NCBI GenBank assembly: GCA_964016885.1
Contig: OZ024741.1
Coordinates: 54,498,001-54,562,000, forward strand
Direction: 5' to 3'
DNA length: 64,000 bases
Source: Eledone cirrhosa
Lineage: Eukaryota
Of the stretch, positions 11,280 to 64,000 are shown piece by piece; the stretch's first letter is position 1; every line of letters starts with the position of its first letter. The notes under the pieces were generated by a model. That model made no database searches. It had not been told where the DNA came from and saw nothing but the letters and a program-made list of their open reading frames with translations. The translations under genes were made by a program, and so were the position numbers.

Positions 11280-11334
<55 letters not shown>

Positions 11335-12330: not shown

Positions 12331-12384
12331 ATAGCACCACTGACGATGTTGCAGATGTGCAACGAAAGATTTATGATAAACTAT
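12331..12384 (+). ncRNA. Minimal type I hammerhead ribozyme in PLE terminal repeat
   Basis: CTGACGA (12340) - stem II GTTGCA/TGCAAC - GAAA (12364) - near-palindromic short stem III - TTA; stem I weak. Confidence 0.6.
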
Positions 12385-14802: not shown

Positions 14803-14860
14803 ATATAACAACACTGACGATGTTGCAGATGTGCAGCGAAAGATTTATGATAAACTATAT
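14803..14860 (+). ncRNA. Minimal type I hammerhead ribozyme (second copy)
   Basis: CTGACGA (14814), stem II GTTGCA/TGCAGC (G-U keeps pairing), GAAA (14838). Confidence 0.55.
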
Positions 14861-15047
14861 ATATGTGTCTGTGCTTATATTGTATCTGTATTATTTTTGA
14901 CCGTCGGTCAGTCAATGGCAACATTGAGGACCGAGTAAGTTAGATTACCGATATAAAAGACAGCGAGAAGCGAAAACCAACCAAACAATGAGTGTGTTCT
15001 GTTATTAATTCTGGCAATATTACACAAATATAACCCTCCCCAAGTAT

Positions 15048-20381: not shown

Positions 20382-20423
20382 GTCACTGAAGAGGTCACAG
20401 AATGTGTGACGAAAGAACTTTGA
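20382..20423 (+). ncRNA. Minimal type I hammerhead (5' terminal-repeat copy)
   Basis: GTCA-CTGAAGA (20386)-GGTCACA/TGTGAC-GAAA (20411)-GAAC-TT-TGA. Confidence 0.55.
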
Positions 20424-20469
20424 AAATATATGAACAACCGTCCGGTTGTGGAACCAACCAACCAACTGC

Positions 20470-22615: not shown

Positions 22616-22816
22616 GGACAAATGAAAACACACACGCACATAGAACAAACAACCAACCTGTAACATGTAAATAAACAAATAAATAAACGAATATAAACAC
22701 ACACAGACACCCGGATGTGGCGCATGCGCAGACTGAGCACACAACACACACACACAGAAACAAAATGGCGTAGGACAGAACAAAGGAGAGGCACAAAAAC
22801 AAAGAAAAGAATCCCA

Positions 22817-22859
22817 GTCACTGAAGAGGTCACAGAGTGTGTGACGAAAGAACTTTGAC
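22817..22859 (+). ncRNA. Minimal type I hammerhead (3' terminal-repeat copy)
   Basis: Stem I GTCA/TGAC, CTGAAGA (22821), stem II GTCACA/TGTGAC, GAAA (22846), 2-bp stem III, CUU triplet. Confidence 0.65.
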
Positions 22860-23135
22860 AATATAAAAACAACCATCTGGTTGTGGAACCAACCAACCAA
22901 CCGGAAATTCATAAATTCCTAAATTTATAAATTTATTATAATAAATTGAAGTGAAACAGCTGGTGCGTGTGTTTGTTATTGGCAACATGACCCTCCCAAA
23001 GTATAACAATATCGGTTTCAACACACGTTTTCAGATAAAGAATCTTGCTAAACAAATTCAGAAACGAAATATATATATATATATATATATATAAAGATAT
23101 ATATATATATATATAAATATATATGTATGTATATA

Positions 23136-37520: not shown

Positions 37521-38689
37521 TCTAGAGGGTCTTTACCTTTACCCCATTGTTATAGATTTGGTCATTGAGGTTGTTGTGGGTGTTTATGTGACTGATATAG
37601 TGGTTTTGATGTGGTTTTGTGTTTAATTGTCGTTTTAGTTGTTACCGTTGTTGTCCTTCTTGCTGGTGTGGCTTTTTATGATGTTTATATTATTGGGATT
37701 GTTTTTGTAAATTTGAATATGGTTTTAAGGCTGTTGCTATAGCTGTTGTGTTGTGGTTGTTGCTATATTTTTGTTGTTGTGTGGTGATTGTTGTTATAGT
37801 TTTTGAGGGGTTTCGGGTTGTTGCTATACGTAATTGTTAGTGCTGTGGTTGCTGATGTGTTTGTTGCTATAGTTGTTGTTGAGGTTGTGATTGTTGTTAT
37901 TGCGATTAATATTATTGTTGATGAGCGGCGGCTTTGAGTTATTGTTATAGTTGTTGTTGCTGTTGGTGGTGTTGTTATTTTAGCGTTGACTTCTAGCTCG
38001 GATGGTACAGACTCCTCTACTACTAGAGTTGTTGACATATACACTACCACCAATACCACAAATACAATATTTATAACAAAATCTTGGTGTATGGTCCACC
38101 ATTATAACCACCACACCACCACTACTACACCAGCACTACACCACCATCACAACTACAACAATAATATCTACAAAAGCAACATTTTGATGTATGATTAACC
38201 ACCTTTATCACCAACTCCACACAACCTCAACCACCTATATCACAACACCCACAACAACCCCATCAACAAAAGCAACATATTCACCGCCACTATCATAACA
38301 TCTACCTATACCTATACTACCACCACCACAACAATCACAACTTCCACCTATAACATGACAACTACAACAACCATATCAACGAAAGCAACATCTTCAACAT
38401 TACTATCATACCTCCTATCTACACCTATACTAGCACCATCACCAGAATAACATGTACAAAAGCCTCATCTTTACCAATGTACCATCACCACTATTACTAT
38501 CTCCCCCTATACCACCACAAATATGTCAACCACATCAGCAAAACAAATTCTTGACGTTTCACTACATCAATAAATGCCACCACCATCACTACGACCAAAT
38601 TGACATCTACAAACGCAACATCTCGATGTATGTATCGCCACCCCTATCAGCACCTCCTCGTATACCACCACAACCACAACAAGCATATA

Positions 38690-40111
38690 AAACCAGCGTA
38701 TTCACCACAGAACCAACGTATTCACCACAAAACCAACGTATTCACCACAGAACCAGCGTATTCACCACAAAACCAGCGTATTCACCACAAAACCAGCGTA
38801 TTCACCACAAAACCAACGTGTTCACCACAAAACCAACGTATTCACCACAAAACCAACGTATTCACCACAAAATCAGCGTATTCACCACAAAACCAGCGTA
38901 TTCACCACAAAACCAGCGTATTCACCACAAAACCAACGTATTCACCACAAAACCAGCGTATTCACCACAAAACCAGCGTATTCACCACAAAACCAGCGTA
39001 TTCACCACAAAACCAACGTATTCACCACAAAACCAGCGTATTCACCACAAAACCAACGTGTTCACCACAAAACCAACGTATTCACCACAAAACCAACGTA
39101 TTCACCACAAAACCAACGTATTCACCACAAAACCAACGTGTTCAGCACAAAACCAACGCGTTCACCACAAAACCAGCGTATTCACCACAAAACCAACGTA
39201 TTCACCACAAAACCAACGTATTCACCACAAAACCAGCGTATTCACCACAAAACCAACGTATTCACCACAAAACCAACGTATTCACCACAAAACCACCGTA
39301 TTCACCACAAAACCACCGTATTTACCACAAAACCAACGTGTTCACCACAAAACCAACGTATTCACCACAAAACCAACGTTATTCACCACAAAACGAACGT
39401 GTTCACCACAAAACCAGCGTATTCACCACAAAACCAACGTATTCACCACAAAACCAACGTATTCACCACAAAACCAACGTGTTCACCACAAAACCAACGT
39501 ATTCACCACAAAACCAACGTTATTCACCACAAAACGAACGTGTTCACCACAAAACCAGCGTGTTCACCACAAAACCAACGTATTCACCACAAAACCAACG
39601 TATTCACCACAAAACCAACGTGTTCACCACAAAACCAACGTATTCACCACAAAACCAGCGTATTCACCACAAAACCAGCGTGTTCACCACAAAACCAACG
39701 TATTCACCACAAAACCAACGTGTTCACCACAAAACCAACGTATTCACCACAAAACCAACGTATTCACCACAAAACCAACGTATTCACCACAAAACCAGCG
39801 TATTCACCACAAAACCAGCGTATTCACCACAAAACCAACGTATTCACCACAAAACCAACGTATTCACCACAAAACCAGCGTATTCACCACAAAACCAACG
39901 TATTCACCACAAAACCAGCGTATTCATCACAAAACCAACGTATTCACCACAAAACCAACGTATTCACCACAAAACCAACGTTATTCACCACAAAACGAAC
40001 GTGTTCACCACAAAACCAACGTGTTCACCACAAAACCAACGTATTCACCACAAAACCAGCGTATTCACCACAAAACCAACGTATTCACCACAAAACCAAC
40101 GTATTCACCAC
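38690..40111. repeat. 20-bp minisatellite (TTCACCACAAAACCA[A/G]CGT[A/G])n, about 70 copies
   Basis: Exact 20-bp register in the sequence rows; three 21-bp variants shift the frame. Confidence 0.97.
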
Positions 40112-40359
40112 AACAATCTCAACCTCTACCTACACCACACTACCATCACCAAAAATAACACGACTTCACCATTTATACCATCATTACCGCTATCCACGCC
40201 CCCACCACCAATAACACCATCCTTGTGCAATCCCCAACTATACCCGCCCCACCACTACAAAATCTATGGCAACATCTTGCTGTACCAACTAAAACCGCAG
40301 ACAAGATCACCTAGACCAGAAATAACAAGGGTAAGAATGTGGAAAAAAATCCTCCAATA

Positions 40360-43901: not shown

Positions 43902-44903
43902 TCAGCATCTGTTGTTGAGGGGGCACGTAGATCCATCAGGGCAGTTACAACTCCTGGTCGACTCTCCACTATTTTCTAGGTTGTTTCTTCCATAGGGGTT
44001 GAGTTTTTTGTTGTTTGAGGAGACGATGTTTTGTGCAAAGTTAGGTGTGGTGCTGTAGGATAGCTTGATAGTGTCTTTGTTGATTATGTTGTGGTAACGG
44101 TGTTGTGGTGGAAAGTGTTTTTCGAGGAGCCTAAAGAAGATTTTCCCGATAGGTGTTGCCACCTCGGCATTGTGGGGAGGATTGAACCACGTTACGTGGC
44201 GTAGGCAGCGGCGTCGCCTGCAGGTTCCGTAAAGGGAAGCTGGATAAAAGGATATTTCCTCCCAGAAGCCACTCCGTTTGAGGGCCTGGTTGTAATGAGG
44301 CGCATGTTCGTCGAATATCTGCTCATTAGCTGACAGACGAGATATGCGGATGGAGATGTTTTTAACCAGATTATTGCTGATGTTTCTAGGATGGTTAGAG
44401 CGGCGCTGGATGCAGTGCAGGTTGTCGTTTGGTTTCCTGTATGGGTAGTACGGACCATTTTCGAGATTGAGGGTAACGTCCAGGAAATTTACTCGGATTA
44501 GGGACGTTTGTAGGGTGATTTTAAATATCCAGTCCCGGAAAAAGTTGATAAGTTGTTTACGGACCCGGTCTGTACTACTGGGGTTGTACCCTTTGAGGGT
44601 AAGGAGCCCATCGTCTCGGTACAATCCACCGCCGAATGCGGGAAACATTTCGTTGAGTTTAAATAGTAGGAATAATCCTATAAGATCGGTGACCTCGGCT
44701 GAATCAGTCGCGTCCATGCTGACGTCGAAGGGGGAGTCGGAACCTCTCTTTATCCATTTGGAGTTGTTGAAAAGTAGGACTGTCTTCCTGGCGTGGACAA
44801 TGATATTTCTTTCCTGGTCGGTGATGGGCGCGAGTGTTTCGGCAAAGTCTAAGGCGGCCGTAAGGAGCAGTAAGGTAATAGATGCATAGTAACTATATGT
44901 CAA
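43902..44903 (-). pseudogene. PLE RT/thumb/Cys-linker ORF fragment (333 aa)
   Basis: YRDD catalytic motif; reading frame continues past a TGA into the GIY-YIG domain. Confidence 0.85.
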
Positions 44904-46726
44904 ACTGGATGAATTGTGTCCCGTTTGTCCTCAATATTCCTGAAACACAAGATTACTTCCTGGGTGCTAACCCATAGGCTATTCTCGCGTTTTGCTTAAC
45001 TTTTGGTATAACTCGGTCTAAGATGTTTTTACTGATTCTCCCTATGTCCGACTTCGTCGGTTTATAAGCCTGATGGATGGTTTGCGGTCGAAGTCGGATT
45101 TGTGGTCCTTCAGTGTGAAGTAGGCAGTCCGTGGGTCGAGGCGTTCAGTGCGGTCTGCGACCCCGAGATTAGAGGTAATTTGTTGTCCCTTTAGATTTAT
45201 GTCCTTAGCAGGCGACGCCGCCGCCCACGCCATGTAACGTGGTTCAATCCTCCCCACAATGCAGAAGTGGCAACACCTATCGGGAAAATTTTCTTTAGGC
45301 TCCTCGAAAAACACTTTCCACCACAACACCGTTACCACAACATAATCAACAAAGACACTATCAAGCTATCCTACAGCACCACACCTAACTTCGCACAAAA
45401 CATCGTCTCCTCAAACAACAAAAAGCTCAACCCCTATGGAAGAAACCTAGAAATTAGTGGAGTGCCGACCAGGAGTTGTAACTGCCCTGATAGATTTACG
45501 TGCTCCCTCAATAACAGATGCCGAGAACGTAATGTGATCTACTAGTGCAACGTGAGGACGGACACCTCCAACAAAGCTTATATAGGATTAACTGCTTGTG
45601 ACTTTAAGACCCGGCTCTACCAACACCGGAATACGTTCCGAAACCCGGTCCGGCGACATGTCACCACACTTTCGAGCCATATCTGGGACCTCCAAGATAA
45701 TAATATAACTTACTATCTCACTTGGAGCTTACTGCCCAGAGCTAACTCTTACACGGGAGGACGCCGTCCATGTAACTTATGCTCGGAGGAAACATTACAA
45801 ATGCTGTTTAGGAAGGATCAACTCCTAAACAAAGAAGATGAACTGGTAACTGCATGCAAACACAGATTTCGGAAGACTTACCTCTCCCTCAAACCCCCTA
45901 ACGATCCGGGTGGGTAGACAAGGGCTGAAACACCCCACTCGCCGAATAAGATAGGGAAAACCACAACTTACATAGGTAGATATACCCCTTTTCTTTTCCT
46001 CTATGTTTTCTTCTTCCCAATGTCTCCTCCTATCACTTCTTTCCACCACCGAACTTCTTCCTCGTTCGTTCCTTTGTTTTTTTCCTCCCTTTCGCCTACC
46101 CCGAGGCAGCCCATCAGGCCTCTTTAGCCTCAGTACCCCCACCCCAGTAACTTACAGATAGCATTCGCCGATTACGTTATACTAACTAATCATAGCAGCT
46201 ATGTTAGATCCCAAAGATGTGGTATTAATTTTTAATACCCAATTCTAAATGTTCAATAATTCTCATCTAGCAACCCATTCTATAGCATTGGCCGAAAATG
46301 CAGCACCAACTAAATATAGCAGCTGTGGTAGACACCTTAGCTTTTGTTTTATTTCACTTCTCACTTTCCACTCTTACATTCTGATATATCTGTCTCTCAT
46401 TTTTTATTGTATTCTTTTTTATTATATTTTTTCTTTGTCCCCTAATTCTCATTTGATTTACCTTTTCTATAACGTCCCTCCTCGATTTTCTAAAGAAACC
46501 TTTTTTCGACTACCTCCCCTGGCCTACTTTCATACACATCCTTAGAATTTGCCGTGTCGATTTCTCCTTCAACGCTTGACCGGACCGACTCTACCCACTT
46601 ACCTATTGTTCTACAGGCAAGTTCAGACACCCCCACCCCGCGCCCACTGCCATGATATACTTTTCTGTGTCTGCTACAAATTTTGACCAATCCTCTTGAC
46701 AACTACAATCTTCCTATATAAGGAAG

Positions 46727-46827
46727 TACTTCTTGAAAATTTCGGCTATTTATTTACCAGACTAAAAAAACTCTAACTTTAGTCCAGAAATAGCCGTCGA
46801 AACGGCTTGAGCTCTGCCGTCGGGGTC
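46727..46827 (+). ncRNA. Type I hammerhead ribozyme with U3-A8 variant core (inverted copy)
   Basis: ACTTC-TTGAAAA (46733)...GAAAC-GGC/GCC-GTC (46819)-GGGGT; stem I kept by G-U pairs. Confidence 0.6.
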
Positions 46828-46833
46828 ATACTT

Positions 46834-46878
<45 letters not shown>

Positions 46879-47237
46879 TGATCGAGTATCGAAAAATCGG
46901 CGCACGAGTTCACGATAAACAAAATTCGAAATGAGCGGCAGAGGGCTCAATAATTCAGATAAATCAGAGCTATAACTATCGTTAAAATACCGTCACATAT
47001 AGAACAAGTCTAAAATCAACCGCACGATAAAAAATCGATAACAGAAGATTCGGGACACTCAGATAAAAAATATCAATAAATTAATAATTTAAATGAATGT
47101 AAAATCATACCCGGACCCACTAGAAAGGTGTTAAATCTAGCTTCTTGGGTTTCTGTAAATCCTTAAACTGTACTCTATCAGCTCACATATAAATATATAA
47201 GATTTCTAGAATTCAGCGGACTGGAAATTTACTTCTT

Positions 47238-47314
<77 letters not shown>

Positions 47315-47467
47315 ATATAAATTTTGAGTATATGTTGGTTGTTTACCGACACCTCAGTATGCAGAATGGAACACTCGACGAAGTACGCAGGTTGGTTTGG
47401 TTACTCCGGAGTAATGTAAAATAATTAAGTCAAATATTTAAAATGTGGCTTCATTTATTAAAGATGT

Positions 47468-47523
47468 ACTGCTATATATATATCGGTGACAGCCATCATT
47501 GGTTGTGACCTCTTCAGGCAGTC
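47468..47523 (-). ncRNA. Minimal type I hammerhead, GAAA mutated to GATA
   Basis: ACTGC-CTGAAGA-GGT..ACC-GATA-TATATA-TA-GCAGT. Confidence 0.6.
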
Positions 47524-48361
47524 CGAATTGGTGTGGTAGAGACAAGTACACATGTTGTTGGAGTGTTTTACTCCGTCAATACTCCGATATGTCCAGCTCC
47601 TGGTTGGGTTGTTATTTCTCTGAGGAACTGGAATCATATGAATTCGAACAAACGAATTTTGGCGTCTAGGACACTCTCTCCTCCCATTGGTCAGTTGTGA
47701 GAACATTCCTCAGTCACAAATCTATAGAAATTTTTCTGAGGCAAGACAATCTGTTGTGGTTGTTTTTGTTAAGTACAGCTGACCTCCTCCCTTGTGTTGG
47801 TAGTGGTATTTGGTTATGGGGTCAGCTGGCAGATCAGCTTTAGGTCGGCTGCTGCTATGTTTAGAAGAATTTGTGTGTGTGGGTTGGCATCTATCCTGCC
47901 ACCATTTCACGTGGTGGGGGGTGCCAAACAGATAAAGAAATAAGATAAAGTAAAATGAAGAAATAAAATAATAAGATATAATAAAATGAAGAAATGAAAA
48001 AATAAAAGAATAAAATAAAAAAAAATGCGTGAGTGTAACAACCAATATCAAAGTTTGAAAGATTTTGAAAATATTGGCTGAAGTAGAAAGGTTGTGTGTC
48101 AGAATGGAGAAGTGCAAAGGATTACAATCCTTACACTATCATGGGGTGGTGCGTTTTAAGAGCAAATGAGACAGGAATGTTCTCACACCTGACCAATGGT
48201 AGAAGAGAGTGTCCTATGACGCCGAAATTCGTTTATTTGAATTCATGTGATTCCAGTTCCTCAGAGAAATAACAACCCAACCAGGAGCTGGACATATCGG
48301 AGTATTGACGGAGTATAATACTCCAACAACATGGGTACCTGTCTCTACCACACCAATTCGG

Positions 48362-48416
48362 ACTACCTGTAGAGGTCACAACCAATGATCGCTGTCACCG
48401 AAATATATATAGCAGT
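48362..48416 (+). ncRNA. Minimal type I hammerhead, CTGAAGA mutated to CTGTAGA
   Basis: ACTAC-CTGTAGA-GGT..ACC-GAAA-TATATA-TA-GCAGT. Confidence 0.55.
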
Positions 48417-48473
48417 ACATCTTTTATAATCGAAGCCAAATTTTAAATATTTAACTTAATTATTTTATATATA

Positions 48474-51400
48474 TAAACCCTTTTTGTTGTTACTCTAGCG
48501 TCCCCCTTTATTTACGTGTCCCAACGACTTTTTTTAGCCGTTGTTCGCACGAACCTGAGGCATATGGCCCTTAAAGCGATGAAATGCCGAGGACGGTTGG
48601 AGGGTCACTGATGAAGGACTCACTTTTTCATATGTATCCCATTTGCAACGCCGCAGCTCCATTATTATCATCATATTTACACATATTACTTTTCCATGCT
48701 GCCTGTCTGTCTGTTCCTTGTATCTTTACCACTTCTAGCAGTCTCTCTCCCTCTCTGTTACCCTCTCCTCAACTTTCACTCACTCATTCTCTGTCACTAC
48801 CTCTCCTCCTCCTCTTTCCTCCTCCTCCTTCAAGTTTGACCTGTGTGTAATTCTTTTCTCGCGCAGTCTTGACCGAGCTGGTATGGAATTTTTTTTTCTC
48901 TCTCTCTTTCGTCTGTGACTTCACAAAACTTGCGTTTACCGATTTCGCAGACCAGACCACCTTATCTTCTTCTTCTTCTTCTTCTTCTTCTTCTTCTTCT
49001 TCTTCTTCTTCTTCTTCTTCTTCTTCTTCTTCCTCTTCTCTCCTTTCTCTGTGTCTCTCTCTCTCTCTTTTTTCCCCCCGTCAAACTTGGGCGAAATTCT
49101 TTCCTTGCTCACATTTCTACCAGGTTCGATGGTCTTTCGTCTCTTGTTCACGATTTCACAGAGTTTATATTCATAGAGATCTGGGACTTGTCTATTTCTA
49201 CTCACTTTCTGTTGCTTAAACCCTTTTTGTTGTTACTCTAGCGTCCCCCTTTATTTACGTGTCCCAACGACTTTTTTTAGCCGTTGTTCGCACCAACCTG
49301 AGGCATATGGCCCTTAAAGCGATGAAATGCCGAGGACGGTTGGAGGGTCACTGATGAAGGACTCACTTTTTCATATGTATCCCATTTGCAACGCCGCAGC
49401 TCCATTATTATCATCATATTTACACATATTACTTTTCCATGCTGCCTGTCTGTCTGTTCCTTGTATCTTTACCACTTCTAGCAGTCTCTCTCCCTCTCTG
49501 TTACCCTCTCCTCAACTTTCACTCACTCATTCTCTGTCACTACCTCTCCTCCTCCTCTTTCCTCCTCCTCCTTCAAGTTTGACCTGTGTGTAATTCTTTT
49601 CTCGCGCAGTCTTGACCGAGCTGGTATGGAATTTTTTTTCTCTCTCTCTTTCGTCTGTGACTTCACAAAACTTGCGTTTACCGATTTCGCAGACCAGACC
49701 ACCTTATCTTCTTCTTCTTCTTCTTCTTCTTCTTCTTCTTCTTCTTCTTCTTCTTCTTCTTCTTCTTCTTCTTCTTCTTCTTCCTCTTCTCTCCTTTCTC
49801 TGTGTCTCTCTCTCTCTCTTTTTTCCCCCCGTCAAACTTGGGCGAAATTCTTTCCTTGCTCACATTTCTACCAGGTTCGATGGTCTTTCGTCTCTTGTTC
49901 ACGATTTCACAGAGTTTATATTCATAGAGATCTGGGAGTTGTCTATTTCTACTCACTTTCTGTTGCTTAAACCCTTTTTGTTGTTACTCTAGCGTCCCCC
50001 TTTATTTACGTGTCCCAACGACTTTTTTTAGCCGTTGTTCGCACCAACCTGAGGCATATGGCCCTTAAAGCGATGAAATGCCGAGGACGGTTGGAGGGTC
50101 ACTGATGAAGGACTCACTTTTTCATATGTATCCCATTTGCAACGCCGCAGCTCCATTATTATCATCATATTTACACATATTACTTTTCCATGCTGCCTGT
50201 CTGTCTGTTCCTTGTATCTTTACCACTTCTAGCAGTCTCTCTCCCTCTCTGTTACCCTCTCCTCAACTTTCACTCACTCATTCTCTGTCACTACCTCTCC
50301 TCCTCTTTCCTTCTCCTCCTTCAAGTTTGACCTGTGTGTAATTCTTTTCTCGCGCAGTCTTGACCGAGCTGGTATGGAATTTTTTTTCTCTCTCTCTTTC
50401 GTCTGTGACTTCACAAAACTTGCGTTTACCGATTTCGCAGACCAGACCACCTTATCTTCTTCTTCTTCTTCTTCTTCTTCTTCTTCTTCTTCTTCTTCTT
50501 CTTCTTCTTTTTCTTCTTCTTCTTCTCTCCTTTCTCTGTGTCTCTCTCTCTCTCTTTTTTCCCCCCGTCAAACTTGGGCGAAATTCTTTCCTTGCTCACA
50601 TTTCTACCAGGTTCGATGGTCTTTCGTCTCTTGTTCACGATTTCACAGAGTTTATATTCATAGAGATCTGGGACTTGTCTATTTCTACTCACTTTCCGTT
50701 GCTTAAACCCTTTTTGTTGTTACTCTAGCGTCCCCCTTTATTTACGTGTCCCGACGACTTTTTTTAGCCGTTGTTCGCACCAACCTGAGGCATATGGCCC
50801 TTAAAGCGATGAAATGCCGAGGACAGTTGGAGGGTCACTGATGAAGGACTCGCTTTTTCATATGTATCCCATTTGCAACGCCGCAGCTCCATTATTATCA
50901 TCATATTTACACATATTACTTTTCCATGCTGCCTGTCTGTCTGTTCCTTGTATCTTTACCACTTCTAGCAGTCTCTCTCCCTCTCTGTTACCCTCTCCTC
51001 AACTTTCACTCACTCATTCTCTGTCACTACCTCTCCTCCTCCTCTTTCCTCCTCCTCCTTCAAGTTTGACCTGTGTGTAATTCTTTTCTCGCGCAGCCTT
51101 GACCGAGCTGGTATGGAATTATTTTTCTCTCTCTCTTTCGTCTGTGACTTCACAAAACTTGCGTTTACCGATTTCGCAGACCAGACCACCTTATCTTCTT
51201 CTTCTTCTTCTTCTTCTTCTTCTTCTTCTTCTTCTTCTTCTTCTTCTTCTTCTCTCCTTTCTATGTGTCTCTCTCTCTCTCTTTTTTCCCCCCGTCAAAC
51301 TTGGGCGAAATTCTTTCCTTGCTCACATTTCTACCAGGTTCGATGGTCTTTCGTCTCTTGTTCACGATTTCACAGAGTTTATATTCATAGAGATCTGGGA

Positions 51401-51958
51401 CTTGTCTATTTCTACTCACTTTCCGTTGCTTAAACCCTTTTTGTTGTTACTCTAGCGTCCCCCTTTATTTACGTGTCCCAACGACTTTTTTTAGCCGTTG
51501 TTCGCACCAACCTGAGGCATATGGCCCTTAAAGCGATGAAATGCCGAGGACGGTTGGAGGGTCACTGATGAAGGACTCACTTTTTCATATGTATCCCATT
51601 TGCAACGCCGCAGCTCCATTATTATCATCATATTTACACAAATTACTTTTCCATGCTGCCTGTCTGTCTGTTCCTTGTATCTTTACCACTTCTAGCAGTC
51701 TCTCTCCCTCTCTGTTACCCTCTCCTCAACTTTCACTCACTCATTCTCTGTCACTACACTCCTCCTCCTCTTTCCTCCTCCTCCTTCAAGTTTGACCTGT
51801 GTGTAATTCTTTTCTCGCGCAGTCTTGACCGAGCTGGTATGGAATTTTTTTTCTCTCTCTCTTTCGTCTGTGACTTCACAAAACTTGCGTTTACCGATTT
51901 CGCAGACCAGACCACCTTATCTTCTTCTTCTTCTTCTTCTTCTTCTTCTTCTTCTTCT

Positions 51959-51997
<39 letters not shown>

Positions 51998-54900
51998 TCT
52001 CTCCTTTCTCTGTGTCTCTCTCTCTCTCTTTTTTCCCCCCCGTCAAACTTGGGCGAAATTCTTTCCTTGCTCACATTTCTACCAGGTTCGATGGTCTTTC
52101 GTCTCTTGTTCACGATTTCACAGAGTTTATATTCATAGAGATCTGGGACTTGTCTATTTCTACTCACTTTCCGTTGCTTAAACCCTTTTTGTTGTTACTC
52201 TAGCGTCCCCCTTTATTTGCGTGTCCCAACGACTTTTTTTAGCCGTTGTTCGCACCAACCTGAGGCATATGGCCCTTAAAGCGATGAAATGCCGAGGACG
52301 GTTGGAGGGTCACTGATGAAGGACTCACTTTTTCATATGTATCCCATTTGCAACGCCGCAGCTCCATTATTATCATCATATTTACACATATTATTTTTCC
52401 ATGCTGCCTGTCTATCTGTTCCTTGTATCTTTACCACTTCTAGCAGTCTCTCTCCCTCTCTGTTACCCTCTCCTCAACTTTCACTCACTCATTCTCTGTC
52501 ACTACCTCTCCTCCTCCTCTTTCCTCCTCCTCCTTCAAGTTTGACCTGCGTGTAATTCTTTTCTCGCGCAGTCTTGACCGAGCTGGTATGGAATTTTTTT
52601 TCTCTCTCTCTTTCGTCTGTGACTTCACAAATCTTGCGTTTACCGATTTCGCAGACCAGACCACCTTATCTTCTTCTTCTTCTTCTTCTTCTTCTTCTTC
52701 TTCTTCTTCTTCTTCTTCTTTTTCTTCTTCTTCTTCTCTCCTTTCTCTGTGTCTCTCTCTCTCTCTTTTTTCCCCCCGTCAAACTTGGGCGAAATTCTTT
52801 CCTTGCTCACATTTCTACCAGGTTCGATGGTCTTTCGTCTCTTGTTCACGATTTCACAGAGTTTATATTCATAGAGATCTGGGACTTGTCTATTTCTACT
52901 CACTTTCCGTTGCTTAAACCCTTTTTGTTGTTACTCTAGCGTCCCCCTTTATTTACGTGTCCCAACGACTTTTTTTAGCCGTTGTTCGCACCAACCTGAG
53001 GCATATGGCCCTTAAAGCGATGAAATGCCGAGGACGGTTGGAGGGTCACTGATGAAGGACTCACTTTTTCATATGTATCCCATTTGCAACGCCGCAGCTC
53101 CATTATAATCATCATATTTACACATATTACTTTTCCATGCTGCCTGTCTGTCTGTTCCTTGTATCTTTACCACTTCTAGCAGTCTCTCTCCCTCTCTGTT
53201 ACCCTCTCCTCAACTTTCACTCACTCATTCTCTGTCACTGCCTCTCCTCCTCCTCTTTCCTTCTCCTCCTTCAAGTTTGACCTGCGTGTAATTCTTTTCT
53301 CGCGCAGTCTTGACCGAGCTGGTATGGAATTTTTTTTCTCTCTCTCTTTCGTCTGTGACTTCACAAAACTTGCGTTTACCGATTTCGCAGACCAGACCAC
53401 CTTATCTTCTTCTTCTTCTTCTTCTTCTTCTTCTTCTTCTTCTTCTTCTTCTTCTTCTTCTTCTTCTTCTCTCCTTTCTCTGTGTCTCTCTCTCTCTCTT
53501 TTTTCCCCCCGTCAAACTTGGGCGAAATTCTTTCCTTGCTCACATTTCTACCAGGTTCGATGGTCTTTCGTCTCTTGTTCACGATTTCACAGAGTTTATA
53601 TTCATAGAGATCTGGGACTTGTCTATTTCTACTCACTTTCCGTTGCTTAAACCCTTTTTGTTGTTACTCTAGCGTCCCCCTTTATTTACGTGTCCCGACG
53701 ACTTTTTTTAGCCGTTGTTCGCACCAACCTGAGGCATATGGCCCTTAAAGCGATGAAATGCCGAGGACGGTTGGAGGGTCACTGATGAAGGACTCGCTTT
53801 TTCATATGTATCCCATTTGCAACGCCGCAGCTCCATTATTATCATCATATTTACACATATTACTTTTCCATGCTGCCTGTCTGTCTGTTCCTTGTATCTT
53901 TACCACTTCTAGCAGTCTCTCTCCCTCTCTGTTACCCTCTCCTCAACTTTCACTCACTCATTCTCTGTCACTACCTCTCCTCCTCCTCTTTCCTCCTCCT
54001 CCTTCAAGTTTGACCTGTGTGTAATTCTTTTCTCGCGCAGTCTTGACCGAGCTGGTATGGAATTTTTTTTTCTCTCTCTCTTTCGTCTGTGACTTCACAA
54101 AACTTGCGTTTACCGATTTCGCAGACCAGACCACCTTATCTTCTTCTTCTTCTTCTTCTTCTTCTTCTTCTTCTTCTTCTTCTTCTTCTTCTTCTTCTTC
54201 TTCCTCTTCTCTCCTTTCTCTGTGTCTCTCTCTCTCTCTTTTTTCCCCCCGTCAAACTTGGGCGAAATTCTTTCCTTGCTCACATTTCTACCAGGTTCGA
54301 TGGTCTTTCGTCTCTTGTTCACGATTTCACAGAGTTTATATTCATAGAGATCTGGGACTTGTCTATTTCTACTCACTTTCCGTTGCTTAAACCCTTTTTG
54401 TTGTTACTCTAGCGTCCCCCTTTATTTGCGTGTCCCAACGACTTTTTTTAGCCGTTGTTCGCACCAACCTGAGGCATATGGCCCTTAAAGCGATGAAATG
54501 CCGAGGACGGTTGGAGGGTCACTGATGAAGGACTCACTTTTTCATATGTATCCCATTTGCAACGCCGCAGTTCCATTATTATCATCATATTTACACATAT
54601 TACTTTTCCATGCTGCCTGTCTATCTGTTCCTTGTATCTTTACCACTTCTAGCAGTCTCTCTCCCTCTCTGTTACCCTCTCCTCAACTTTCACTCACTCA
54701 TTCTCTGTCACTACCTCTCCTCCTCCTCTTTCCTCCTCCTCCTTCAAGTTTGACCTGTGTGTAATTCTTTTCTCGCGCAGTCTTGACCGAGCTGGTATGG
54801 AATTTTTTTTCTCTCTCTCTTTCGTCTGTGACTTCACAAAACTTGCGTTTACCGATTTCGCAGACCAGACCACCTTATCTTCTTCTTCTTCTTCTTCTTC

Positions 54901-57900
54901 TTCTTCTTCTTCTTCTTCTTCTTCCTCTTCTCTCCTTTCTCTGTGTCTCTCTCTCTCTCTTTTTTCCCCCCGTCAAACTTGGGCGAAATTCTTTCCTTGC
55001 TCACATTTCTACCAGGTTCGATGGTCTTTCGTCTCTTGTTCACGATTTCACAGAGTTTATATTCATAGAGATCTGGGAGTTGTCTATTTCTACTCACTTT
55101 CCGTTGCTTAAACCCTTTTTGTTGTTACTCTAGCGTCCCCCTTTATTTACGTGTCCCAACGACTTTTTTTAGCCGTTGTTCGCACCAACCTGAGGCATAT
55201 GGCCCTTAAAGCGATGAAATGCCGAGGACGGTTGGAGGGTCACTGATGAAGGACTCACTTTTTCATATGTATCCCATTTGCAACGCCGCAGCTCCATTAT
55301 AATCATCATATTTACACATATTACTTTTTCATGCTGCCTGTCTGTCTGTTCCATGTATCTTTACCACTTCTAGCAGTCTCTCTCCCTCTCTGTTACCCTC
55401 TCCTCAACTTTCACTCACTCATTCTCTGTCACTACCTCTCCTCCTCCTCTTTCCTTCTCCTCCTTCAAGTTTGACCTGTGTGTAATTCTTTTCTCGCGCA
55501 GTCTTGACCGAGCTGGTATGGAATTTTTTTTCTCTCTCTCTTTCGTCTGTGACTTCACAAAACTTGCGTTTACCGATTTCGCAGACCAGACCACCTTATC
55601 TTCTTCTTCTTCTTCTTCTTCTTCTTCTTCTTCTTCTTCTTCTTCTTCTTCCTCTTCTCTCCTTTCTCTGTGTCTCTCTCTCTCTCTTTTTTGCCCCCGT
55701 CAAACTTGGGCGAAATTCTTTCCTTGCTCACATTTCTACCAGGTTCGATGGTCTTTCGTCTCTTGTTCACGATTTCGCAGAGTTTATATTCATAGAGATC
55801 TGGGACTTGTCTATTTCTACTCACTTTCCGTTGCTTAAACCCTTTTTGTTGTTACTCTAGCGTCCCCCTTTATTTACGTGTCCCAACGACTTTTTTTAGC
55901 CGTTGTTCGCACCAACCTGAGGCATATGGCCCTTAAAGCGATGAAATGCCGAGGACGGTTGGAGGGTCACTGATGAAGGACTCACTTTTTCATATGTATC
56001 CCATTTGCAACGCCGCAGCTCCATTATTATCATCATATTTACACATATTACTTTTCCATGCTGCCTGTCTGTCTGTTCCTTGTATCTTTACCACTTCTAG
56101 CAGTCTCTCTCCCTCTCTGTTACCCTCTCCTCAACTTTCACTCACTCATTCTCTGTCACTACACTCCTCCTCCTCTTTCCTCCTCCTCCTTCAAGTTTGA
56201 CCTGTGTGTAATTCTTTTCTCGCGCAGTCTTGACCGAGCTGGTATGGAATTTTTTTTCTCTCTCTCTTTCGTCTGTGACTTCACAAAACTTGCGTTTACC
56301 GATTTCGCAGACCAGACCACCTTATCTTCTTCTTCTTCTTCTTCTTCTTCTTCTTCTTCTTCTTCTTCTTCTAAATCTTCTTCCTCTTCTCTCCTTTCTC
56401 TGTGTCTCTCTCTCTCTCTTTTTTCCCCCCGTCAAACTTGGGCGAAATTCTTTCCTTGCTCACATTTCTACCAGGTTCGATGGTCTTTCGTCTCTTGTTC
56501 ACGATTTCACAGAGTTTATATTCATAGAGATCTGGGACTTGTCTATTTCTACTCACTTTCCGTTGCTTAAACCCTTTTTGTTGTTACTCTAGCGTCCCCC
56601 TTTATTTACGTGTCCCAACGACTTTTTTTAGCCGTTGTTCGCACCAACCTGAGGCATATGGCCCTTAAAGCGATGAAATGCCGAGGACGGTTGGAGGGTC
56701 ACTGATGAAGGACTCACTTTTTCATATGTATCCCATTTGCAACGCCGCAGCTCCATTATTATCATCATATTTACACATATTACTTTTCCATGCTGCCTGT
56801 CTATCTGTTCCTTGTATCTTTACCACTTCTAGCAGTCTCTCTCCCTCTCTGTTACCCTCTCCTCAACTTTCACTCACTCATTCTCTGTCACTACCTCTCC
56901 TCCTCCTCTTTCCTCCTCCTCCTTCAAGTTTGACCTGTGTGTAATTCTTTTCTCGCGCAGTCTTGACCGAGCTGGTATGGAATTTTTTTTCTCTCTCTCT
57001 TTCGTCTGTGACTTCACAAAACTTGCGTTTACCGATTTCGCAGACCAGACCACCTTATCTTCTTCTTCTTCTTCTTCTTCTTCTTCTTCTTCTTCCTCTT
57101 CTCTCCTTTCTCTGTGTCTCTCTCTCTCTCTTTTTTCCCCCCGTCAAACTTGGGCGAAATTCTTTCCTTGCTCACATTTCTACCAGGTTCGATGGTCTTT
57201 CGTCTCTTGTTCACGATTTCACAGAGTTTATATTCATAGAGATCTGGGAGTTGTCTATTTCTACTCACTTTCCGTTGCTTAAACCCTTTTTGTTGTTACT
57301 CTAGCGTCCCCCTTTATTTACGTGTCCCAACGACTTTTTTTAGCCGTTGTTCGCACCAACCTGAGGCATATGGCCCTTAAAGCGATGAAATGCCGAGGAC
57401 GGTTGGAGGGTCACTGATGAAGGACTCACTTTTTCATATGTATCCCATTTGCAACGCCGCAGCTCCATTATACTCATCATATTTACACATATTACTTTTT
57501 CATGCTGCCTGTCTGTCTGTTCCATGTATCTTTACCACTTCTAGCAGTCTCTCTCCCTCTCTGTTACCCTCTCCTCAACTTTCACTCACTCATTCTCTGT
57601 CACTACCTCTCCTCCTCCTCTTTCCTTCTCCTCCTTCAAGTTTGACCTGTGTGTAATTCTTTTCTCGCGCAGTCTTGACCGAGCTGGTATGGAATTTTTT
57701 TTCTCTCTCTCTTTCGTCTGTGACTTCACAAAACTTGCGTTTACCGATTTCGCAGACCAGACCACCTTATCTTCTTCTTCTTCTTCTTCTTCTTCTTCTT
57801 CTTCTTCTTCTTCTTCTTCTTCTTCTTCTTCTTCTTCTTCCTCTTCTCTCCTTTCTCTGTGTCTCTCTCTCTCTCTTTTTTGCCCCCGTCAAACTTGGGC

Positions 57901-60900
57901 GAAATTCTTTCCTTGCTCACATTTCTACCAGGTTCGATGGTCTTTCGTCTCTTGTTCACGATTTCGCAGAGTTTATATTCATAGAGATCTGGGACTTGTC
58001 TATTTCTACTCACTTTCCGTTGCTTAAACCCTTTTTGTTGTTACTCTAGCGTCCCCCTTTATTTACGTGTCCCAACGACTTTTTTTAGCCGTTGTTCGCA
58101 CCAACCTGAGGCATATGGCCCTTAAAGCGATGAAATGCCGAGGACGGTTGGAGGGTCACTGATGAAGGACTCACTTTTTCATATGTATCCCATTTGCAAC
58201 GCCGCAGCTCCATTATTATCATCATATTTACACATATTACTTTTCCATGCTGCCTGTCTGTCTGTTCCTTGTATCTTTACCACTTCTAGCAGTCTCTCTC
58301 CCTCTCTGTTACCCTCTCCTCAACTTTCACTCACTCATTCTCTGTCACTACCTCTCCTCCTCCTCTTTCCTCCTCCTCCTTCAAGTTTGACCTGTGTGTA
58401 ATTCTTTTCTCGCGCAGTCTTGACCGAGCTGGTATGGAATTTTTTTTTCTCTCTCTCTTTCGTCTGTGACTTCACAAAACTTGCGTTTACCGATTTCGCA
58501 GACCAGACCACCTTATCTTCTTCTTCTTCTTCTTCTTCTTCTTCTTCTTCTTCTTCTTCTTCTTCTTCTTCCTCTTCTCTCCTTTCTCTGTGTCTCTCTC
58601 TCTCTCTTTTTTCCCCCCGTCAAACTTGGGCGAAATTCTTTCCTTGCTCACATTTCTACCAGGTTCGATGGTCTTTCGTCTCTTGTTCACGATTTCACAG
58701 AGTTTATATTCATAGAGATCTGGGAGTTGTCTATTTCTACTCACTTTCCGTTGCTTAAACCCTTTTTGTTGTTACTCTAGCGTCCCCCTTTATTTACGTG
58801 TCCCAACGACTTTTTTTAGCCGTTGTTCGCACCAACCTGAGGCATATGGCCCTTAAAGCGATGAAATGCCGAGGACGGTTGGAGGGTCACTGATGAAGGA
58901 CTCACTTTTTCATATGTATCCCATTTGCAACGCCGCAGCTCCATTATAATCATCATATTTACACATATTACTTTTCCATGCTGCCTGTCTGTCTGTTCCT
59001 TGTATCTTTACCACTTCTAGCAGTCTCTCTCCCTCTCTGTTACCCTCTCCTCAACTTTCACTCACTCATTCTCTGTCACTACCTCTCCTCCTCCTCTTTC
59101 CTTCTCCTCCTTCAAGTTTGACCTGTGTGTAATTCTTTTCTCGCGCAGTCTTGACCGAGCTGGTATGGAATTTTTTTTCTCTCTCTCTTTCGTATGTGAC
59201 TTCACAAAACTTGCGTTTACCGATTTCGCAGACCAGACCACCTTATCTTCTTCTTCTTCTTCTTCTTCTTCTTCTTCTTCTTCTTCTTCTTCTTCTTCTT
59301 CTTCTTCTTCTCTCCTTTCTCTGTGTCTCTCTCTCTCTCTTTTTTCCCCCCCGTCAAACTTGGGCGAAATTCTTTCCTTGCTCACATTTCTACCAGGTTC
59401 GATGGTCTTTCGTCTCTTGTTCACGATTTCGCAGAGTTTATATTCATAGAGATCTGGGACTTGTCTATTTCTACTCACTTTCCGTTGCTTAAACCCTTTT
59501 TGTTGTTACTCTAGCGTCCCCCTTTATTTACGTGTCCCAACGACTTTTTTTAGCCGTTGTTCGCACCAACCTGAGGCATATGGCCCTTAAAGCGATGAAA
59601 TGCCGAGGACGGTTGGAGGGTCACTGATGAAGGACTCACTTTTTCATATGTATCCCATTTGCAACGCCGCAGCTCCATTATTATCATCATATTTACACAT
59701 ATTACTTTTCCATGCTGCCTGTCTGTCTGTTCCTTGTATCTTTACCACTTCTAGCAGTCTCTCTCCCTCTCTGTTACCCTCTCCTCAACTTTCACTCACT
59801 CATTCTCTGTCACTACCTCTCCTCCTCCTCTTTCCTCCTCCTCCTTCAAGTTTGACCTGTGTGTAATTCTTTTCTCGCGCAGTCTTGACCGAGCTGGTAT
59901 GGAATTTTTTTTTCCCTCTCTCTTTCGTCTGTGACTTCACAAAACTTGCGTTTACCGATTTCGCAGACCAGACCACCTTATCTTCTTCTTCTTCTTCTTC
60001 TTCTTCTTCTTCTTCTTCTTCTTCTTCTTCTTCTTCTTCTCTCCTTTCTCTGTGTCTCTCTCTCTTCTTTTTTCCCCCCGTCAAACTTGGGCGAAATTCT
60101 TTCCTTGCTCACATTTCTACCAGGTTCGATGGTCTTTCGTCTCTTGTTCACGATTTCACAGAGTTTATATTCATAGAGATCTGGGAGTTGTCTATTTCTA
60201 CTCACTTTCCGTTGCTTAAACCCTTTTTGTTGTTACTCTAGCGTCCCCCTTTATTTACGTGTCCCAACGACTTTTTTTAGCCGTTGTTCGCACCAACCTG
60301 AGGCATATGGCCCTTAAAGCGATGAAATGCCGAGGACGGTTGGAGGGTCACTGATGAAGGACTCACTTTTTCATATGTATCCCATTTGCAACGCCGCAGC
60401 TCCATTATAATCATCATATTTACACATATTACTTTTCCATGCTGCCTGTCTGTCTGTTCCTTGTATCTTTACCACTTCTAGCAGTCTCTCTCCCTCTCTG
60501 TTACCCTCTCCTCAACTTTCACTCACTCATTCTCTGTCACTACCTCTCCTCCTCCTCTTTCCTCCTCCTCCTTCAAGTTTGACCTGTGTGTAATTCTTTT
60601 CTCGCGCAGCCTTGACCGAGCTGGTATGGAATTTTTTTTTCTCTCTCTCTTTCGTCTGTGACTTCACAAAACTTGCGTTTACCGATTTCGCAGACCAGAC
60701 CACCTTATCTTCTTCTTCTTCTTCTTCTTCTTCTTCTTCTTCTTCTTCTTCTTCTTCTTCTTCCTCTTCTCTCCTTTCTCTGTGTCTCTCTCTCTCTCTT
60801 TTTTCCCCCCGTCAAACTTGGGCGAAATTCTTTCCTTGCTCACATTTCTACCAGGTTCGATGGTCTTTCGTCTCTTGTTCACGATTTCACAGAGTTTATA

Positions 60901-63900
60901 TTCATAGAGATCTGGGACTTGTCTATTTCTACTCACTTTCCGTTGCTTAAACCCTTTTTGTTGTTACTCTAGCGTCCCCCTTTATTTACGTGTCCCAACG
61001 ACTTTTTTTAGCCGTTGTTCGCACCAACCTGAGGCATATGGCCCTTAAAGCGATGAAATGCCGAGGACGGTTGGAGGGTCACTGATGAAGGACTCACTTT
61101 TTCATATGTATCCCATTTGCAACGCCGCAGCTCCATTATTATCATCATATTTACACATATTACTTTTCCATGCTGCCTGTCTGTCTGTTCCTTGTATCTT
61201 TACCACTTCTAGCAGTCTCTCTCCCTCTCTGTTACCCTCTCCTCAACTTTCACTCACTCATTCTCTGTCACTACCTCTCCTCCTCCTCTTTCCTCCTCCT
61301 CCTTCAAGTTTGACCTGTGTGTAATTCTTTTCTCGCGCAGCCTTGACCGAGCTGGTATGGAATTTTTTTTTCTCTCTCTCTTTCGTCTGTGACTTCACAA
61401 AACTTGCGTTTACCGATTTCGCAGACCAGACCACCTTATCTTCTTCTTCTTCTTCTTCTTCTTCTTCTTCTTCTTCTTCTTCTTCTTCTTTCCTTTCTCT
61501 GTGTCTATCTCTCTCTCTCTCTTTTTCCCCCCGTCAAACTTGGACGAAATTCTTTCCTTGCTCACATTTCTACCAGGTTCGATGGTCTTTCGTCTCTTGT
61601 TCACGATTTCACAGAGTTTATATTCATAGAGATCTGGGACTTGTCTATTTCTACTCACTTTCCGTTGCTTAAACCCTTTTTGTTGTTACTCTAGCGTCCC
61701 CCTTTATTTACGTGTCCCAACGACTTTTTTTAGCCGTTGTTCGCACCAACCTGAGGCATATGGCCCTTAAAGCGATGAAATGCCGAGGACGGTTGGAGGG
61801 TCACTGATGAAGGACTCACTTTTTCATATGTATCCCATTTGCAACGCCGCAGCTCCATTATAATCATCATATTTACACATATTACTTCTCCATGCTGCCT
61901 GTCTGTCTGTTCCTTGTATCTTTACCACTTCTAGCAGTCTCTCTCCCTCTCTGTTACCCTCTCCTCAACTTTCACTCACTCATTCTCTGTCACTACCTCT
62001 CCTCCTCCTCTTTCCTTCTCCTCCTTCAAGTTTGACCTGTGTGTAATTCTTTTCTCGCGCAGTCTTGACCGAGCTGGTATGGAATTTTTTTTCTCTCTCT
62101 CTTTCGTCTGTGACTTCACAAAACTAGCGTTTACCGATTTCGCAGACCAGACCACCTTATCTTCTTCTTCTTCTTCTTCTTCTTCTTCTTCTTCTTCTTC
62201 TTCTTCTTCTTCTTCTTCCTCTTCTCTCCTTTCTCTGTGTCTCTCTCTCTCTCTTTTTTCCCCCCGTCAAACTTGGGCGAAATTCTTTCCTTGCTCACAT
62301 TTCTACCAGGTTCGATGGTCTTTCGTCTCTTGTTCACGATTTCGCAGAGTTTATATTCATAGAGATCTGGGACTTGTCTATTTCTACTCACTTTCCGTTG
62401 CTTAAACCCTTTTTGTTGTTACTCTAGCGTCCCCCTTTATTTACGTGTCCCAACGACTTTTTTTAGCCGTTGTTCGCACCAACCTGAGGCATAAGGCCCT
62501 TAAAGCGATGAAATGCCGAGGACGGTTGGAGGGTCACTGATGAAGGACTCACTTTTTCATATGTATCCCATTTGCAACGCCGCAGCTCCATTATTATCAT
62601 CATATTTACACATATTACTTTTCCATGCTGCCTGTCTGTCTGTTCCTTGTATCTTTACCACTTCTAGCAGTCTCTCTCCCTCTCTGTTACCCTCTCCTCA
62701 ACTTTCACTCACTCATTCTCTGTCACTACCTCTCCTCCTCCTCCTTCAAGTTTGACCTGTGTGTAATTCTTTTCTCGCGCAGTCTTGGCCGAGCTGGTAT
62801 GGAATTTTTTTTTCTCTCTCTCTTTCGTCTGTGACTTCACAAAACTTGCGTTTACCGATTTCGCAGACCAGACCACCTTATCTTCTTCTTCTTCTTCTTC
62901 TTCTTCTTCTTCTTCTTCTTCTTCTTCTTCTTCTTCCTCTTCTCTCCTTTCTCTGTGTCTCTCTCTCTCTCTTTTTTCCCCCCGTCAAACTTGGGCGAAA
63001 TTCTTTCCTTGCTCACATTTCTACCAGGTTCGATGGTCTTTCGTCTCTTGTTCACGATTTCACAGAGTTTATATTCATAGAGATCTGGGAGTTGTCTATT
63101 TCTACTCACTTTCCGTTGCTTAAACCCTTTTTGTTGTTACTCTAGCGTCCCCCTTTATTTACGTGTCCCAACGATTTTTTTTAGCCGTTGTTCGCACCAA
63201 CCTGAGGCATATGGCCCTTAAAGCGATGAAATGCCGAGGACGGTTGGAGGGTCACTGATGAAGGACTCACTTTTTCATATGTATCCCATTTGCAACGCCG
63301 CAGCTCCATTATTATCATCATATTTACACATATTAATTTTCCATGCTGCCTGTCTGTCTGTTCCTTGTATCTTTACCACTTCTAGCAGTCTCTCTCCCTC
63401 TCTGTTACCCTCTCCTCAACTTTCACTCACTCATTCTCTGTCACTACCTCTCCTCCTCCTCTTTCCTCCTCCTCCTTCAAGTTTGACCTGTGTGTAATTC
63501 TTTTCTCGCGCAGCCTTGACCGAGCTGGTATGGAATTTTTTTTTCTCTCTCTCTTTCGTCTGTGACTTCACAAAACTTGCGTTTACCGATTTCGCAGACC
63601 AGACCACCTTATCTTCTTCTTCTTCTTCTTCTTCTTCTTCTTCTTCTTCTTCTTCTTCTTCCTCTTCTCTCCTTTCTCTGTGTCTCTCTCTCTCTCTTTT
63701 TTCCCCCCGTCAAACTTGGGCGAAATTCTTTCCTTGCTCACATTTCTACCAGGTTCGATGGTCTTTCGTCTCTTGTTCACGATTTCACAGAGTTTATATT
63801 CATAGAGATCTGGGACTTGTCTATTTCTACTCACTTTCCGTTGCTTAAACCCTTTTTGTTGTTACTCTAGCGTCCCCCTTTATTTACGTGTCCCAACGAC

Positions 63901-64000
63901 TTTTTTTAGCCGTTGTTCGCACCAACCTGAGGCATATGGCCCTTAAAGCGATGAAATGCCGAGGACGGTTGGAGGGTCACTGATGAAGGACTCACTTTTT
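48474..64000 (+). repeat. Head-to-tail tandem array of a ~712-751 bp non-coding unit (21 full units + partial), continuing past the window end
   Basis: Landmark ATGCCGAGG recurs at 48584, 49327, 50078, 50814, 51541, 52289, 53025, 53758, 54498, 55219, 55946, 56678, 57390, 58135, 58866, 59600, 60327, 61058, 61780, 62513, 63231, 63956; length variation comes mainly from an internal (TTC)n. Confidence 0.98.
49293..49360 (+). ncRNA. Candidate non-circularly permuted hammerhead ribozyme with kink-turn (representative copy; one per array unit, 22 in window)
   Basis: CCAACC-T-GA-GGCA-TA|TGGCCCT-TAAAGCGAT-GAAA-TGCC-GAG-GA-C-GGTTGG-AGGGTCA-CTGATGA-AGG: stem III GGCA/TGCC, stem I TGGCCCT/AGGGTCA, full core, AUA triplet with predicted cleavage after 49307. 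Confidence 0.7.

Follow-up and report, generated by a model that had tools for sequence, protein, structure and literature searches.

The DNA analysed here, called the window below, is a stretch of 64,000 nucleotides from Eledone cirrhosa (contig OZ024741.1, positions 54,498,001 to 54,562,000 of the forward strand), and its right-hand end is filled by a tandem array of a retrozyme-like unit in which a hammerhead-type ribozyme of type SGC is predicted. The array and the general parts of its unit are as follows, unit 1 serving as the reference for the coordinates of parts that recur in every unit:

48474..64000, plus strand: tandem array, 21 full units and part of unit 22.
48476..49218, plus strand: unit 1, 743 bp.
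48965..49039, plus strand: (TCT)n microsatellite, whose longest pure run varies by unit from 11 to 25 repeats.

The initial annotation described a tandem array that begins in a (TA)n target, and both points stand. The array is head-to-tail and bounded by TA repeats; it continues 5.8 kb past the window to a long (AT)n tract at contig position ~54567802, and as a whole it comprises 29 full units and a 158-nt partial one over ~21.3 kb. Its left edge adjoins a short TATATA, position 48474 being a TA common to the target and to the unit end. Within the window, units start between 48476 and 63848 with a period of 712-751 bp and a mean identity of 99.1%; across all 29 units, lengths range over 709-756 bp and the sequences are 99% alike. 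The (TCT)n tract is the origin of this length variation and is absent from the 535-637 nt units of a sister subfamily. The TA run that received the array lies at the end of an unrelated inverted-repeat element:

47321..48473, no strand assigned: older separate repeat, its two inverted arms 298 bp long, containing a type I hammerhead-like motif of the minimal sort.

This older repeat is itself dispersed, with copies of ~80-86% identity flanking other loci (e.g., L029 and L132), and the two arms carry different damage in their hammerhead-like motif.

The unit is 70% pyrimidine and contains a low-complexity ATG frame of 170 aa on the stop-poor pyrimidine strand, which is tentatively read as non-coding; the unit is likely protein-free. 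Its pyrimidine richness had been likened to that of the neighbouring termini of Penelope-like elements (PLEs). The richness itself is real, but the 300 nt upstream of seven neighbouring PLE type I hammerheads are 34-51% pyrimidine, with only 45917-46830 reaching 63%, and the composition is therefore a weak argument for kinship with PLEs.

All letters of a hammerhead core are present in the unit, in the order cleavage site, GAAA, CUGAUGA. Every unit has a single AUA, which occupies unit position 87-89 (48562-48564 in the window), and the exact core together with stems I and III is retained in 27 of the 29 units, so a read-through transcript would hold many sites. The predicted parts are:

48518..48548, plus strand: upstream splint (predicted), made of Pa (48518-48521), hairpin P5 (48522-48543) and Pb (48545-48548).
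48616-48619 and 48576-48579, plus strand: predicted splint partners of Pa and of Pb, respectively, in place of a plain stem II.
48550..48571, plus strand: block S, with a distal helix strand (48550-48555), the kink-turn GA (48557-48558), a stem III strand, the AUA, the predicted cut at 48564/48565 and a stem I strand (48565-48571).
48581..48600, plus strand: block G, with GAAA (48581-48584), a stem III strand, the bulge and GA (48589-48593) and a distal helix strand (48595-48600).
48601..48619, plus strand: block C, with a stem I strand (48601-48607), CUGAUGA (48608-48614), position 10.1 (48615) and the Pa partner.

The claim of one self-cleavage site per unit is thus borne out as one conserved, covarying hammerhead-type site each, cleavage itself being predicted. 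The accompanying comparison with newt and schistosome hammerheads is not supported as worded, the ribozyme being a non-circular permutation with additional parts (block order S-G-C) and not the type I of newt, coral and mussel retrozymes. The Rfam hammerhead models give no hit at gathering threshold in the 64 kb and none at E<=10 in 46000-50000, a blank that is expected because the fold is permuted. Twister, hepatitis delta virus-like, spliced-leader and small nucleolar RNA readings were considered by eye and set aside, Rfam support for them being nil.

The motif recurs in the genome far more often than chance would allow. Patterns drawn from the window's subfamily match 1,194 times genome-wide, and those for two related subfamilies 3,536 (sister) and 506 times, each against 0 for the reversed control; the three patterns overlap in part, and their counts are not additive. 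Looser patterns aimed at strongly diverged families give 346 matches against 38 in the control, 63 against 1 and 74 against 11. A loose pattern also picked up a second abundant family, which proved unrelated: its ribozyme is of the ordinary type I and follows a PLE with a C-terminal endonuclease. Some old, diverged SGC-like motifs with a common, distinct flank were also seen (L324, L347, L352, L361, L363-L367); no coding frame was found within ~4.5 kb upstream of them. Outside this genome, none of 84 matches (4 metagenomic, and the 80 listed of 120 viral ones) passed the stem I and stem III test.

The fold is supported by the way in which the sequences vary. In 17 sequences picked to span the subfamilies, 83% of pairing cells can pair, compared with 29-44% when the partners are slid, and both partners vary in 26 of the 33 pairs (stem I, 6/7; stem III, 4/4; distal helix, 5/6); these figures are support and not a probability, as the structure was derived from the same, related sequences, which inflates them, and some rows of the alignment have their 5′ helices out of register. 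Core letters are invariant across families, as the search patterns demanded, and the catalytic letters and the UH site are kept in families whose stems differ strongly in sequence. When nested structures are computed, stem III forms with a pair probability of 0.9, the distal helix with 0.68 and hairpin P5 with 0.85-0.87; pseudoknots cannot be scored in this way.

Stem III continues, through a 3-nt bulge and tandem G-A pairs, into a 6-bp helix, which is the pattern of a standard kink-turn as described in the accessible part of PMC5061560 (helix, 3-nt bulge, tandem G-A pairs, second helix). The match is one of sequence pattern, and the flanking helices covary. The bulge varies freely, and of 130 distinct sequences, 122 have a non-Watson-Crick combination at 3b-3n; the C-U found there in the window fits the ion-folding rule set out in the available text of PMC4382518. 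The GA follows the bulge in nearly all matches listed for the 1,194- and 3,536-match patterns, which did not require it, although later patterns did. A sharp bend at this point would explain how the distal helix can join stem I without a linker.

Stem II is the least certain part of the modelled structure. It is unorthodox in that the strand after CUGAUGA and the strand before GAAA are predicted to pair with separate upstream segments, and the probabilities of Pa and Pb in nested folding are low (0.08 and 0.01). The 10.1-11.1 pair forms in 95 of 130 distinct sequences. It is usually G-C, and the A-U of the window is the weaker of the two; some families might have 11.1 paired with an upstream base in its place. 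The hairpin between the splint strands is optional and absent in family E. In addition, only 39% of the circular monomer is predicted to be paired (z -2.8).

The unit also occurs dispersed outside the array, as monomers to trimers, the kind of copies for which the initial annotation had suggested a search. A 141-nt query returns 928 candidates in the genome, and all 40 that were scored, located on two chromosomes, are 100% identical. At 17 dispersed loci, pieces ranging from less than a unit to ~3.5 units differ by 0.3-3% from the window unit; their 5′ ends are scattered, and 4 of the 17 loci show inverted 5′ arms. Related units measure 535-737 nt and retain the ribozyme, the tail described below and one further block. 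The units of the family have no fixed 5′ end and no internal pLTR (pseudo-long terminal repeat) boundary.

The 3′ ends are of another kind, being fixed at two sites ~50 nt apart that both lie in (TA)n. Among 65 contexts of family A, 36 end in (TA)n: 23 of these ends lie 12-16 nt beyond CUGANGA, 12 lie 55-66 nt beyond it and 1 falls elsewhere. The other 29 contexts continue into another unit or flank. Among 73 contexts of family B, 18 end at the near site, 28 at the far site and 4 elsewhere, and 23 run on. The two sites delimit a tail:

48629..48682, plus strand: tail between the fixed 3′ ends (~48633 and ~48680), including an AC-rich stretch kept in the subfamilies.

A purified PLE enzyme was shown to use, in vitro, two internal start sites that define such a tail (PMC11167929), and, because the fixed 3′ ends match the products of that enzyme, they are likely to be two internal start sites of reverse transcription. 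Tails, inversions and (TA)n targets are given as PLE marks in the accessible part of PMC8557442. The dispersed family combines the (TA)n target, 5′ truncation, inverted arms and a tail of ~50 nt, longer than the 30-40 nt described. By their sequence, then, its insertion marks are PLE hallmarks, and the earlier proposal that PLEs mobilise the unit is upheld on this point by random 5′ ends, fixed 3′ ends and inversions.

If RNA is cut at the predicted site before it is copied, some copies should begin there. The distribution of 5′ ends tentatively suggests a several-fold enrichment over unit positions 86-96, as compared with a small-sample upstream estimate of 8 starts in 84 nt among 113 segments. 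There are 135 copies that begin at 86-90; a count by eye over the first 100 listed gives 19 whose start is precisely position 90 and follows a base other than A. By comparison, 91-92 yields 19 hits altogether, about half of them internal deletions. Of 20 loci starting near the cut, nine are short arms running from the cut to a fixed end, nine go one lap further and two are false positives, and the two inverted arms of locus L471 each have position 90 as their first base. Copies of this kind give a hint of cleavage. This hint is tempered by the 226 starts at 93-96, a number inflated by subfamily variants, and by TA microhomology, which is present at both places; the excess of starts around the cut is accordingly diffuse and confounded.

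It has to be asked, then, whether the unit is a deleted, non-autonomous PLE that is copied from uncut, linear read-through RNA without any circle, its fold being conserved as an enzyme-binding site or cutting only with the aid of a protein or in trans. The cut is read through in 75 of 78 and in 35 of 35 sampled copies, although these samples are biased since the searches required an intact site, and the nine near-cut copies that run one lap cross the next site uncut. The PLE ribozyme of the anole is protein-dependent and dispensable for insertion, cutting being unnecessary for insertion by the PLE tested in vitro (PMC11167929), and eight of nine Xenopus retrozymes did not cut. Private variants common to all units of a small insertion are few (0-2 per locus at eight loci), and there is therefore no clear single-circle signature. 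Set against this are the catalytic letters and the UH site, which persist where stems share little sequence, the 5′ ends that fall exactly at the cut, and units that lack a fixed 5′ end or pLTR boundary. On balance, copying from uncut RNA appears unlikely, though it is the strongest of the alternatives to a self-cleaving unit.

How the array reached 29 units is a separate matter, addressed through the substitutions outside the microsatellite in the 29 units. Twenty array-private substitutions are common to 2-7 mostly non-adjacent units, whereas 2.8 would be expected if changes were independent, and the maximum reached in 2,000 simulations of independence was 10. None of these 20 variants was seen in the 17 dispersed loci. 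Four-gamete incompatibility affects 13 of 190 site pairs, which is a misfit to a single tree. Singletons are concentrated at the 3′ end, units 26-29 holding 22 of 43, and the terminal 158-nt partial unit carries three changes, one of them in the core. A second array, of 8 units, shows the same polarity, weakly. In an array of a sister subfamily with nine ribozymes (L047-L055), the few singletons are also clustered in the 3′ units. A-to-G editing across the whole array, a feature noted in other retrozymes, is not apparent. These sequence patterns indicate that the array expanded after insertion, starting from a short seed of several units that arose in the manner of the dispersed copies, the most likely route being unequal exchange.

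Instead of unequal crossing-over, the array might have grown because its transcripts were retrotransposed, time after time, back into the TA-like site at which it starts; this would replace only the final step of the main reading. Such self-targeting would account for the polar divergence, in which the 3′ units are old and the 5′ and middle units young; the fixed 3′ end is itself TA-like, and PLEs are able to nick their own repeat (PMC11167929). Yet mosaic, incompatible variants are the ordinary outcome of unequal exchange and conversion, and no truncated or inverted unit lies inside the array of 29. This route is accordingly held to be improbable, a shade more so than copying from uncut RNA. 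The seamless head-to-tail units of the array, its permuted start and its 3′ end at the fixed site, as in small insertions, would suit an origin of all 29 units in one extended rolling-circle pass of reverse transcriptase around a single RNA circle. The 20 common, mostly non-adjacent variants, the 13/190 incompatible pairs and the 3′ clustering of singletons speak against it; because the private variants are mosaic among units, the 29-mer is not the product of one pass, and this explanation is largely refuted and highly improbable, unless the common variants are assembly artefacts. The rolling-circle seeding proposed in the initial annotation therefore survives for a seed of a few units, where it is possible, and not for the array as a whole. 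A reading of the unit as a simple satellite, or as a cluster of host genes for non-coding RNA, with a chance likeness to a hammerhead (CUGA and UGAUGA resemble boxes D and C of a box C/D-like RNA, the Rfam hammerhead is absent and stem II is not a plain helix) can be dismissed as very improbable, given that no Rfam family at all is matched, that compensatory changes occur in three crossing helices placed as a hammerhead core demands, and that thousands of dispersed 5′-truncated copies have PLE ends.

A PLE-mobilised unit would need a partner that supplies the enzyme. Naiads, a group of PLEs that includes cephalopod members, provide a candidate source for the ribozyme. The 3′ ends of two octopus Naiads in the supplement of PMC8557442, as far as it was available (Naiad_Ovul and the preceding record, probably Naiad_Obim), show by eye the S-G-C order, a 6-bp stem I and the kink-turn pattern, and also, in different letters, the hairpin and both splint helices. 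Naiad_Ovul is one of eight families marked HHR_half_core in the accessible part of that paper. The most likely ancestor of the ribozyme module is the 3′ end of a PLE of the Naiad type.

Searches of the genome brought up neither a Naiad remnant nor any other PLE that ends in this way. Two patterns of Naiad protein motifs gave no match, which does not amount to absence, and no coding PLE was found upstream of a ribozyme within one element among the ribozyme flanks examined; cephalopod Naiads are, moreover, described as long inactive in the available text of PMC8557442. An autonomous PLE sharing the unit's terminus, for which the initial annotation had proposed a search, was not found, either among the ribozyme flanks or in the 40 GIY-YIG loci parsed (of 150 scored), in all of which the nuclease is C-terminal. 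Frames of 844, 938 and 1,096 aa between stops belong to C-terminal-endonuclease PLEs whose end is not common with the unit. A young long interspersed nuclear element (LINE) with a restriction-like endonuclease was also considered as partner and rejected: no SGC ribozyme occurs in the 30 of its 3′ ends that were read, and it ends in (ATAC)n. That LINE is present as many intact 1,174-aa frames, including three tandem copies ~4.03 kb apart (L381-L411, C3 199.886-199.902 Mb).

Taken together, the array is probably a locally expanded, young, likely non-coding retrozyme-like repeat in which every unit carries a type SGC hammerhead motif predicted to cut after AUA, and which is likely copied into (TA)n by a borrowed PLE reverse transcriptase. 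A read-through transcript would fold stem III as a hairpin, and the kink-turn would bend its extension back; stem I would then close as a pseudoknot, while the upstream strand would bridge the two halves of stem II. Cutting would release 732-nt monomers with 5′-OH and cyclic-phosphate ends, which a host ligase could circularise. A PLE enzyme would nick AT-rich DNA and begin synthesis at one of the two internal sites, which lie 70 and 115 nt downstream of the predicted cut. With a circle or an incompletely cut multimer as template, it would then copy back across the junction, and most of the resulting insertions would hold 1-3 units. The length of 29 units would arise later, most likely by unequal exchange.

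A bolder version can be offered only tentatively, its chances being somewhat less than even. The knotted S-G-C core, with its kink-turn and with stem II arranged as a three- or four-way junction, might be a new hammerhead architecture, the missing ribozyme of Naiads, and drive a large class of animal retrozymes overlooked by all searches for types I-III; arrays of this sort would act as factories of 730-nt RNA circles, with cutting perhaps tuned by a protein of the L7Ae family.

The remainder of the window contains other repeats. Fragments of an abundant C-terminal-endonuclease PLE occupy 11236-14900 (and L099-L126), often as inverted pairs 0.5-3 kb apart; this PLE has a minimal type I hammerhead, and its cores lie at 12340 and 14814. 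Another PLE family, related to the first and with reverse transcriptase and GIY-YIG frames occupies 20386-22900 and 24474, with type I cores at 20386, 22821 and 24474 (minus strand). At 43902-46830, a PLE-type reverse transcriptase fragment (minus strand) faces a GIY-YIG fragment (plus strand), and a tail rich in pyrimidines is present. A non-LTR (lacking long terminal repeats) reverse transcriptase element has left minus-strand fragments at 26480-28002, and there are long minisatellites of 8 bp and 20 bp with open low-complexity frames at 2147-3827 and 38689-40113.

The array itself is ordinary in kind, since retrozyme satellites are already known, and the interest lies in the ribozyme. No description of such a system was found in searches of the open-access literature, which for type SGC hammerheads yielded only Eckert et al. 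2023 (PMC10085705). If the reading holds, a fold so far known only from environmental RNA exists in thousands of copies in an animal genome and is wired differently, which would widen the fold space of hammerheads; surveys of retrozymes and PLEs that use type I-III descriptors would undercount, and the apparent absence of hammerheads from Naiads would receive a testable answer. The array also shows that long arrays grow once inserted, and their length is therefore no measure of rolling-circle processivity.

Comparison with known systems places the unit between several of them. According to the accessible part of PMC10085705, cleavage has been shown for type SGC hammerheads, which were found only in metatranscriptomes and in no genome of a known organism. 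The unit shares with HRIMA-1, as described there, the S-G-C order, three crossing helices, all core letters and a connection of ~3 nt between stem I and the side of stem II, and its stems I and III covary. HRIMA-1 has a plain, continuous stem II and an extra helix between stems I and II; here, by contrast, stem II is split over an upstream strand, with only the 10.1-11.1 pair in place of these, a kink-turn is predicted in stem III, and stem III joins stem I without a linker. The portion of the supplement text of PMC10085705 that was available does not mention a kink-turn.

The accessible part of PMC8557442 reports that Naiads insert into (TA)n, form partial tandems and have tails as well as inverted 5′ arms, all of which recur in the present family, and describes Naiads as lacking canonical hammerheads, eight being marked HHR_half_core. 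Unlike the unit, which encodes neither, Naiads encode an endonuclease and a reverse transcriptase in 3.4-4.4 kb, and, within the material available from that source, they share no sequence with the unit beyond the fold and the hairpin loop. The anole Poseidon element PAc has in common with the present family AT-rich targets, two internal reverse transcription starts defining a tail, and an AC-rich stretch, but it is autonomous, has a minimal type I, protein-assisted ribozyme and starts reverse transcription without target homology, whereas the ends seen here show AT microhomology (PMC11167929).

The closest resemblance in overall organisation is to non-LTR retrozymes as presented in the available parts of PMC7229834 and 10.64898/2026.07.22.740005. 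Both are built of non-coding tandem units with one hammerhead-type site each and occur as dispersed monomers to multimers; both have a GC content below 45% and a proposed mobilisation by PLEs, and the unit falls within the reported size range of 51-972 bp. Circular RNA, predicted for the present family, has been demonstrated for those retrozymes. They are defined by a type I hammerhead, in place of which the unit carries a non-circular permutation that Rfam misses. As judged from its sequence, the unit works like a retrozyme but is not a member of that class as currently defined.

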